IMG/VR virus record: IMGVR_UViG_2703719349_000001
Span: 1-9,106 of that record
Length of the DNA stretch: 9,106 nucleotides
Direction: 5' to 3' (one strand)
DNA from: a virus
Taxonomy: Duplodnaviria > Heunggongvirae > Uroviricota > Caudoviricetes
Position numbers and translations under genes: made by a program
Shown here: piece by piece, positions 8,316-9,106 of the stretch
How positions within the stretch are numbered: the first letter of the stretch is position 1
Layout of the letters: each line of letters begins with the position of its first letter
Notes under the pieces: model-generated
The model's database searches: none
What the model was told of the DNA's origin: nothing
What the model saw: only the letters and a program-made list of their open reading frames with translations

Positions 8316-8346
8316 TTGACAAGAGTTATTGGTGTGTCACGTTAAC
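8316..8346 (+). promoter_or_regulatory. Candidate sigma70 promoter for the FaeA/PapI-like gene
   Basis: Perfect -35 TTGACA at 8316-8321 preceded by a T-tract; only weak -10 candidates (ACGTTA / GTTAAC) about 17-19 nt downstream. The terminator at 8218-8244 makes a new promoter here plausible. Confidence 0.3.
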
Positions 8347-8364
8347 CGGAAAAGGGAAAAAGAC

Positions 8365-8562
8365 ATGCTGAAACAGCAGGATATGACCGAAACCGCCAGA
8401 GTGGTGTTTAATGAATTAAGCGTCACCGAACCGGCGACAGTCGGGGAGATTGCACAGAATACTTACCTTTCACGCGAATGCTGTCAGTTAATACTGACCC
8501 AGCTTGTTATGGCGGGTCTGGCAGACTATCAGTTCGGTTGTTACAGACGCCTTCAGTCCTGA
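8365..8562 (+). CDS. Small winged-helix DNA-binding protein, FaeA/PapI-like (65 aa)
   Basis: ATG 8365 with purine-rich SD (AAAGGGAAAAAG). Size and pattern (VVFNELSVTEPATVGEIAQNTYLSRECCQLILTQLVMAGLA) resemble PapI/FaeA-type regulators. ORF track start at 8329 has no SD. Confidence 0.5.
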   Translation: MLKQQDMTETARVVFNELSVTEPATVGEIAQNTYLSRECCQLILTQLVMAGLADYQFGCYRRLQS

Positions 8563-8577
8563 AGGCTTTTTTATTTG
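8549..8577 (+). terminator. Intrinsic terminator overlapping the stop codon of the FaeA/PapI-like gene
   Basis: GCCTTCA-gtcc-TGAAGGC hairpin (8549-8566) followed by TTTTTTATTT. Confidence 0.6.
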
Positions 8578-8713
8578 TGGTAAATGGGCGGCTGGTGGGT
8601 GTTAGGGCACTCACCAGCCATCTGCTCATGCGTTGGGGTCACAAGCAAACCTCAGGCCCATCTGCTTTGCGCAAAAGCAGAATGAGCCTATCAGAGAAGT
8701 GCTTATTGATCTA

Positions 8714-9106
8714 TGGCTAATACTGTAAAAATATCCAGTTGTGAGTTAATCAACGCTGATTGCCTGGAATTTATCCAGACCTTACCGGAAAACTCTGTCG
8801 ATCTGATAGTCACAGACCCGCCATACTTTAAAGTGAAGCCTGAGGGCTGGGATAACCAGTGGAAGGGCGACGATGATTACCTGAAGTGGCTGGACCAGTG
8901 TCTGGCGCAGTTCTGGCGGGTGCTGAAACCTGCCGGAAGTCTTTACCTGTTCTGTGGCCATCGCCTGGCATCTGACATTGAAATCATGATGCGTGAACGC
9001 TTCAGTGTGCTGAACCATATTATCTGGGCGAAGCCGTCCGGACGCTGGAACGGGTGCAACAAGGAAAGCCTGAGGGCGTATTTCCCCGCCACAGAGCGCA
9101 TTCTGT
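8714..9106 (+). CDS. DNA methyltransferase, N6-adenine/N4-cytosine (amino-MTase) type, 3'-truncated at window edge
   Basis: ATG 8714, open to the window end. Contains the catalytic DPPY motif (DLIVTDPPYF) near the N-terminus, as in phage Dam-like/beta-class MTases. Absent from the ORF track only because no stop lies in the window. Confidence 0.85.

Follow-up and report, generated by a model that had tools for sequence, protein, structure and literature searches.

The closest described relatives of the system considered here are the adenine DNA methyltransferases M.EcoGI and M.EcoGII, which are identical at 333 of 349 residues and both come from prophages of E. coli O104:H4 C227-11 (PMC5778455). 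According to that report, they modify adenine whatever the surrounding sequence, accept single-stranded DNA and RNA as substrates too, are not expressed in their native strain, and slow growth when they are expressed; they are presumed to protect phage DNA against restriction (PMC5778455), and this presumed restriction-overcoming role of M.EcoGII is repeated in another paper (PMC12707154). Phage 1720a-02 is named in the former report as the carrier of a very similar enzyme (PMC5778455), and a methylome study of O111 Shiga toxin-producing E. coli refers to M.EcoGI and M.EcoGII as 'nonspecific' orphans, its REBASE-based tables giving the same label to homologues with 92-94% similarity (PMC6602927). 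We have analyzed a stretch of 9,106 nucleotides (hereafter, the window; positions 1 to 9,106 of the IMG/VR virus record IMGVR_UViG_2703719349_000001, Caudoviricetes), at the 3' end of which the beginning of a methyltransferase gene of this type is preceded by an open reading frame (ORF) of 65 codons. Our reading, which we hold to be probable, is that a small winged-helix gene, a structured RNA leader, and an orphan M.EcoGII-type methyltransferase gene form the first cassette of the late region in a lambdoid Stx2a prophage.

Positions 8150-9106 are 100% identical to the chromosome of E. coli 00-3076 (NZ_CP027584.1), where they belong to a Stx2a prophage, and 99.9% identical to three Stx2a-converting phages. 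Phages 1720a-02 and phiP27 match this segment with 92-97% identity, the module of 1720a-02 being 96.8% identical at the nucleotide level. In the annotated order, genes for a DnaB-like helicase, a DUF968 protein (confirmed by Pfam), and the antiterminator Q lead to the 65-aa ORF and the methyltransferase gene, which encodes 352 residues in full, followed by three tRNA genes, stx2A, stx2B, a nanS-like esterase gene, and the lysis genes. No restriction gene adjoins the methyltransferase gene in the annotated full-length loci examined, namely those of the source genome and of related phages. A preliminary description, made from the letters of the window without database searches, had placed the 65-aa ORF directly upstream of an apparently orphan methyltransferase with a DPPY motif and had suggested that the pair could be under the control of Q. 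The arrangement agrees with the annotated records, in that both ORFs are confirmed (the second runs off the end of the window), tRNA genes and stx2AB lie downstream, and the pair is located downstream of the Q gene in the late region.

The methyltransferase half of the cassette is already known in kind. Against the Pfam N6_N4_Mtase family (PF01555; cut-off 26.7), the 131 residues encoded in the window score 62.9 bits and the full protein 150.9 bits. The DPPY motif (motif IV) occupies residues 35-38 and, in the full-length protein, the sequence FMGSGS is found close to the C-terminal end, so that DPPY comes first and FxGxG (motif I) last, which is the beta-class order. Relatives in the Protein Data Bank (PDB) are the beta-class enzymes RsrI, CcrM, and MboIIA, with two HMMER-matched stretches flanking an unmatched central region. 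The full 352-aa protein, taken from a 99.9%-identical phage record, is identical to M.EcoGII at 326 of 349 residues (93%), and its window part at 127 of 131 (97%), figures in which a few mismatches may be reading errors, as the M.EcoGII reference was machine-read from the PDF supplement of PMC11551740. The homology search that the preliminary description had called for thus identifies an orphan adenine-type enzyme that, by sequence, belongs to a characterized family. It shares with M.EcoGI and M.EcoGII the beta-class motif order, the prophage location, and the lack of a restriction partner; it differs in that the window copy lies in a Stx2a prophage directly upstream of tRNA genes and stx2AB, and in that its specificity is a prediction. 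From its identity to M.EcoGII, we infer that it would methylate adenine without sequence specificity and stay silent in the lysogen. The anti-restriction module that had been proposed for the window is in line with the inference published for the near-identical M.EcoGII (PMC5778455).

The spacer of 150 nt between the small gene and the methyltransferase gene is conserved across leader-bearing lineages, with visible compensatory changes, and it contains a leader of 137 nt whose minimum free energy is -64.9 kcal/mol (z -3.96 relative to shuffled sequences). A covariance model of this leader matches positions 8580-8721 of the window with 139 bits. In a 16-sequence MAFFT alignment, 13 base pairs have changed on both sides, compared with 5.1 +/- 1.5 in shuffled alignments, none of 500 shuffles reaching as high a number; sliding the pairing partners leaves 0-5 compensatory pairs and brings the proportion of paired cells from 91.9% down to 27-49%. 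As MAFFT misaligns the upper part of helix P2 and helix P4 between lineages, an alignment of 51 rows fitted to the model was used as well. There, 19 of the 36 pairs are compensatory (7.1 +/- 1.4 in shuffles, again with 0 of 500 as high), and slid partners give 3-8 compensatory pairs, with 29-44% of the cells paired as opposed to 92.2%. One pair of P3 is A-U in 16 rows, C-G in 16, and U-A in 15. The long-range helix that engages the six bases abutting the methyltransferase AUG is paired in 94% of the cells across the 51 rows and has two compensatory pairs of six, the outermost being A-U in 28 rows, G-C in eight, and G-U in seven. Covariation therefore supports the leader structure, of which the long-range helix to the six bases before the AUG is a part.

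The leader is closely associated with its gene. A tight DNA pattern retrieved 120 further instances from viral contigs, and an ATG and the conserved methyltransferase N-terminus follow all 57 distinct variants (117 complete copies). When the downstream motif GGCCCA was also required, the only fetched loci to pass were one of Citrobacter (L140) and one of Rosenbergiella (L144); two other enterobacterial pattern matches were judged by eye to be chance matches. No canonical Shine-Dalgarno sequence precedes the methyltransferase AUG. The anti-Shine-Dalgarno tail near the 3' end of 16S rRNA contains GAUCA, which is complementary to UGAUC, and the UGAUC before the AUG may thus provide the ribosome-binding bases. 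The data fit an alternative fold equally well, one in which the long-range helix is extended and P3 gives way, and a conformational switch of the leader is for this reason possible. Among the lineages examined, L015-L017 and L103 have no leader, and in L015-L017 a short spacer, a terminator, and an ordinary AAAGGA ribosome site are found instead. Rfam 15 has nothing at gathering score in positions 8150-9106, permissive filters giving chance-level matches of at most 22 bits. AgvB and AsxR, two Rfam families sited elsewhere in these prophages, do not match the leader, and a tRNA-like origin was discarded as ARAGORN finds nothing.

The small ORF begins with an ATG and is annotated identically in RefSeq (NZ_CP027584.1). 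Its homologues in Escherichia, Shigella, Salmonella, Klebsiella, Citrobacter, and Buttiauxella are 63-70 aa long, and the Salmonella copy differs from it at 27 third, seven first, and three second codon positions, with 24 codons changed synonymously and six non-synonymously. Because its length is conserved across genera and the substitutions are biased towards third positions, the ORF is, on these sequence criteria, a real gene under purifying selection. The family is narrow, with only 88 representatives at E<=1e-3 in a profile search of 1.8 billion representative proteins. The PHROGs database assigns the protein to phrog_331 (E 1.8e-36), a family of unknown function there, and NCBIfam yields no match for it. 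In Pfam, the window protein gives sub-threshold matches only, all to winged-helix families (DUF7342, TrmB, Rrf2, and DprA_WH), while among 23 members of its family DprA_WH is matched by 17 (best E 1.3e-8) and TrmB by 12; RefSeq names it 'TrmB family' or 'DprA-like winged helix'. The AlphaFold model (predicted local distance difference test score, pLDDT, of 86) has the topology of a winged helix, with three helices followed by a beta hairpin. A Foldseek search with this model gives nothing at E<=1e-3, and the top matches are generic, namely winged-helix domains of O-methyltransferases, IclR, and MarR. The predicted recognition helix, CQLILTQL, is invariant in the family.

These features point to the small protein as a probable accessory that binds nucleic acid, and most likely as a transcription factor whose site is an invariant DNA block just upstream of its own gene. 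The pairing of an invariant block with an invariant recognition helix favors a DNA-binding and possibly autoregulatory role, as judged from conservation. Two observations concern the start of the gene itself. A 5-bp hairpin at 8366-8378 (UGCUG-AAA-CAGCA) takes in two bases of the AUG, and the N-terminus of the protein, MLKQQDMTE, is unusually conserved, distant homologues included. Start-site structure may matter for the small gene also.

The small gene is found directly before an N6_N4 methyltransferase gene of 336-355 codons in every fetched prophage lineage whose sequence is undisrupted and long enough. The pair lies behind four antiterminator families (PF06530, DUF1133, PF03589, and PF06323), the Salmonella pair behind a Q of the DUF1133 type and that of one lineage behind a lambda-Q-type PF06323 antiterminator. 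Three more distant lineages have kept the pair even though their small proteins are only 35-49% identical. In loci with the Klebsiella-type small protein, known from metagenome and read-archive assemblies, the antiterminator belongs to PF03589 and an extra ORF of 110 codons is inserted (L010-L013, positions 4333-4665). This ORF, which has no Pfam match, separates the small gene from the leader, and the leader stays with the methyltransferase gene. Of 5426 complete E. coli genomes, at least 1910 contain the two genes joined, in up to seven places per genome, and in about 62 of the 80 IMG/VR loci that come closest to the window copy the methyltransferase gene is immediately downstream. The first protein scan of the viral contigs returned near-identical E. 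coli copies only, and was used for counts rather than for diversity. An exception to the pairing is a copy of the small gene that adjoins a Dam-type methyltransferase gene and an insertion sequence (IS) element.

Terminators flank the small gene on both sides. The upstream one, t1, marks the left edge of the shared module, as many E. coli matches start there (at query positions 67-88), and the small gene of other genera has a counterpart of this terminator upstream. The downstream one, t2, is strong in E. coli-type lineages only, its hairpin and T-run being weaker in the others; the suggestion that the small gene has its own terminator is accordingly upheld by the terminator-like hairpin and T-run at its end. 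The candidate promoter that had likewise been assigned to it found no support, since a consensus scan of 7700-9106 gave no sigma-70-like site. The hexamer TTGACA at 8316-8321 was discarded as a promoter because no acceptable -10 element accompanies it and because it is specific to the E. coli lineage, with no conservation elsewhere in the module. What is conserved upstream of the small gene is the block listed in Table 1, whose bases and spacing are invariant in 11 of 11 aligned prophage lineages, whatever the type of Q, and which is missing from chromosomal orphan copies of the gene. The block accompanies the small gene and could serve as a promoter or an operator. It is not a consensus sigma-70 promoter according to the scan, RNAalifold predicts no pairs and thus no consensus RNA structure for it, and motifs for sigma-54, sigma-32, sigma-E, CII, CRP, and IHF, compared by eye, did not fit convincingly. 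Between the Q stop codon and t1, positions 8152-8244 give sub-threshold Rfam matches to the Trp leader (22 bits) and to isrK (18.9 bits), which seem to owe most of their score to the terminator hairpin in their 3' portion. This segment is probably the short transcript from PR' to tR', and its position presumably corresponds to that of the StxS small RNA in other Stx phages.

Table 1. Positions, in the window, of the cassette and of the elements around it.
Feature	Position	Strand	Basis
Q antiterminator gene	7769-8149	+	Pfam Phage_antitermQ, 177.9 bits; same annotation in the records LC567818 and NZ_CP027584
Intrinsic terminator t1, probably tR' of the late promoter	8218-8245	+	Eight-pair G+C-rich stem, then T-run
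Conserved block CTTGCTG-N12-(C/A)AGAGTTA-YNN-GT(G/A)TG upstream of the small gene	8303-8340	+	Alignment of prophage lineages
Gene of the small 65-aa winged-helix protein (PHROG 331, function-unannotated)	8365-8562	+	ORF, purifying selection, AlphaFold model, weak Pfam matches, phrog_331
Intrinsic terminator t2, which overlaps the small gene's stop codon	8549-8575	+	Hairpin 8549-8566 with seven-pair stem, then TTTTTTATTT
Conserved structured RNA leader of the methyltransferase gene	8580-8712	+	Fold z-score, covariation, covariance model
Leader helix P1	8586-8589 with 8656-8659	+	
Leader helix P2	8590-8601 with 8608-8619	+	
Leader helix P3	8621-8626 with 8644-8649	+	
Leader helix P4	8662-8668 with 8674-8680	+	
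Leader long-range helix	8636-8641 with 8707-8712 (six bases UGAUCU abutting the AUG)	+	
5' part (131 codons) of the beta-class N6-adenine DNA methyltransferase gene, M.EcoGII type	8713-9106	+	Pfam N6_N4_Mtase, E 5.6e-17; cut by the end of the window

In lambdoid Stx phages, the part that Q and the late promoter PR' play in transcribing stx2 and the late genes is established, and it offers a frame for the operation of the cassette. In the lysogen, transcription would stop at the terminators, and the toxic, sequence-independent methyltransferase would stay silent. After induction, RNA polymerase modified by Q would read through into the cassette, and the enzyme would then methylate adenines across the replicating phage DNA, such that the progeny would be protected from restriction in the next host. 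The leader would limit or time translation of the methyltransferase by sequestering its ribosome-binding bases. A bolder proposal, to which we give a rather low probability, is that the leader is a cis-regulatory RNA switch of a new class, gating this translation in response to a ligand such as S-adenosylmethionine or S-adenosylhomocysteine, to the enzyme itself, or to the winged-helix protein; such a switch could also influence Shiga toxin output, because the late transcript carries stx2 too.

A number of points weigh against the cassette as a functional unit under the control of Q. Its silence in the lysogen and its dependence on Q are deduced from its position and from the literature on M.EcoGII, and PR' was not located in the promoter scan described above. 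Regarding the leader, the 51-row alignment leans towards the structure to which it was fitted, and P1 and most of the long-range helix are invariant, so that they fit the structure and are left unproven by covariation. The elements of the cassette also occur apart. About 14 of the 80 close copies have no methyltransferase gene despite at least 400 nt of downstream sequence, orphan copies of the small gene exist in chromosomes, some lineages have both genes and no leader, and the Rosenbergiella locus (leader at 1309-1450 of L144, minus strand) has the leader and an M.EcoGII-like methyltransferase gene without the small gene. Finally, cloned M.EcoGII is active alone, so that the small protein is not needed for catalysis (PMC5778455). 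The functional tie between the small gene and the methyltransferase gene is thus not obligatory. The Rosenbergiella arrangement further suggests that the leader belongs to the methyltransferase gene rather than to the phage late operon. As for the 14 copies devoid of the methyltransferase gene, they diverge from the window inside the leader, in or just after P2, and because the breaks fall there they are best seen as secondary deletions or replacements; the leader may be a recurrent recombination breakpoint. Such copies include L004, L005, L037, L042, and others; in those of ST131 prophages, the small gene is followed by a DUF3927 gene and iraM.

The same facts can be read in another way, namely that the small gene is an independent 'moron', made of a terminator, a promoter-like block, the gene, and a second terminator, that is expressed in the lysogen and regulates host or prophage genes unrelated to the methyltransferase, the adjacency of the two genes reflecting a shared insertion hot spot downstream of PR'. 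The terminators on both sides of the gene, the invariant upstream block with its fixed spacing in all prophage copies regardless of Q type, the persistence of the gene without the methyltransferase, ST131 prophages included, and its orphan chromosomal copies are all in keeping with this interpretation, and morons have been described as inserting at this position (PMC4104026). We nevertheless regard it as unlikely, if worth keeping in view. The neighbor belongs to the same methyltransferase family down to 35-49% identity of the small protein and behind all four antiterminator families, the copies that lack the methyltransferase gene carry truncated remnants of the leader, as expected of secondary losses, and the upstream block is not recognizable as a sigma-70 promoter.

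The com-mom operon of phage Mu provides a precedent for a regulatory link between the two genes. There too, a small gene precedes the gene of a toxic DNA-modification enzyme that is silent in the lysogen (a silence that is deduced for the present locus), and an RNA structure occludes the start region of the enzyme gene, a part that the conserved helix before the methyltransferase AUG is predicted to play here. By analogy, the small protein could bind the leader RNA and open the helix that hides the ribosome-binding bases, and the enzyme would be translated only after the small protein has accumulated. Such a circuit seems distinctly improbable at this locus. The small protein is a predicted winged helix and not a zinc-finger RNA-binding translational activator of the Com type; the leader is found in places without the small gene, and the small gene without the leader; and whereas the small gene of Mu overlaps the enzyme gene or is coupled to it, the two genes are here neither coupled nor overlapping but separated by a terminator and the leader-containing spacer. 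Moreover, GATC clusters of the Dam/OxyR type are lacking, and the enzyme is an ordinary methyltransferase dependent on S-adenosylmethionine, unlike Mom. M.EcoGII has also been expressed from plasmids without the small gene, in constructs whose upstream sequence is not stated in the portions of the report consulted (PMC5778455).

Two further comparisons bear on what the small protein might do. The best profile matches of its family are the C-terminal winged helix of DprA (PF17782) and the N-terminal domain of TrmB (PF01978), with the differences that the window protein falls below both curated cut-offs and that it is a stand-alone domain. As DprA of H. pylori stimulates a methyltransferase (PMC4489622), the small protein might by analogy be an accessory of the enzyme; this is a lead rather than a model, for the stimulation by H. 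pylori DprA has not been assigned to its winged-helix domain. The controller (C) proteins of restriction-modification systems resemble it in that a small protein of the DNA-binding type is encoded just upstream of a timing-critical gene and possibly acts at a conserved site upstream of its own gene. C proteins, in contrast, are XRE-type helix-turn-helix proteins that bind palindromic C-boxes and control a restriction gene, whereas at this locus the protein is a predicted winged helix, the block shows no obvious palindromic symmetry, and a restriction gene is lacking.

In the preliminary description, the small protein had been likened to PapI and FaeA and the pair to a switch dependent on Dam methylation. 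Part of the likeness holds, as the small size (65-77 aa) and the winged-helix fold of a stand-alone protein are common to PapI, FaeA, PefI, and, by prediction, the present family; the assignment to the FaeA/PapI family does not. The corresponding Pfam profile (PF04703) has no match at E<=1 in the window protein, and FaeA is absent among the 25 families listed, of 28 matched, in the scan of the 23 family members. No match at E<=10 was obtained when the protein was compared by phmmer with the PDB sequences, including PapI (2HTJ) and PefI (2JT1), and neither of these two structures is among the top 50 Foldseek matches of its model. A comparison of the family with PapI by hhalign gave a probability of 60% over 45 columns. 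The recognition helix is also a different one, the context is a phage late operon and not a fimbrial operon, and paired GATC and Lrp sites are missing: there are no pap-like paired regulatory GATC sites in positions 8150-9106, where the only GATC sequences are at 8708 and 8800, none of them upstream of the small gene. A heritable switch in which a PapI/FaeA-type co-regulator cooperates with adenine methylation is consequently very improbable. Enzymes of the M.EcoGII type are not sequence-specific, which makes a site-specific heritable mark unlikely, and their silence in the lysogen would be equally incompatible with it. For lack of a GATC pair, and given the late phage context and the nature of the enzyme, the idea of epigenetic control of the Dam type was not sustained, and the finding that gave rise to this analysis should not be filed as a PapI/Dam-type epigenetic switch. 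That the methyltransferase is part of a complete restriction-modification system extending past the window, for which one might cite the Rosenbergiella locus, where the leader and the methyltransferase gene follow an ORF that by our reading of its translation resembles a restriction enzyme of the PstI/BsuBI type, has a negligible probability, as the annotated full-length records of the source genome and of related phages, with Q and the small gene before the methyltransferase gene and with tRNA genes and stx2AB or lysis genes after it, rule out such a system at this locus.

Elsewhere in the window, an isrK-like RNA with a C4 antisense RNA after it occurs twice in tandem (1381-1457 and 1482-1569; 2241-2317 and 2342-2429), and all four RNAs score above their Rfam gathering thresholds. 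Two consecutive ORFs of the program-made list (1327-2190 and 2187-2846) each contain one of the pairs or follow it, and the arrangement resembles a duplicated c4-ant immunity module of the P1/P7 type in the early region.

No description of the small gene as a partner, of the upstream block, or of the leader RNA was found in Rfam, in the available portions of the M.EcoGII papers, or in full-text searches, and the pairing of the small gene with the methyltransferase gene across genera and antiterminator types, as well as the leader RNA, appear to be undescribed. As a reagent, M.EcoGII has found wide use in chromatin footprinting and in RNA methylation, while its natural regulation is unstudied in the literature that was searched. 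The present analysis indicates that the M.EcoGII-type family normally travels with a conserved small gene of the predicted winged-helix type, and that it carries an RNA leader, supported by covariation, that pairs with the presumed ribosome-binding bases of the methyltransferase gene. In Stx2 phages, the cassette and the two terminators lie between Q/PR' and stx2AB, and its elements are for that reason part of the path that toxin transcription must cross.

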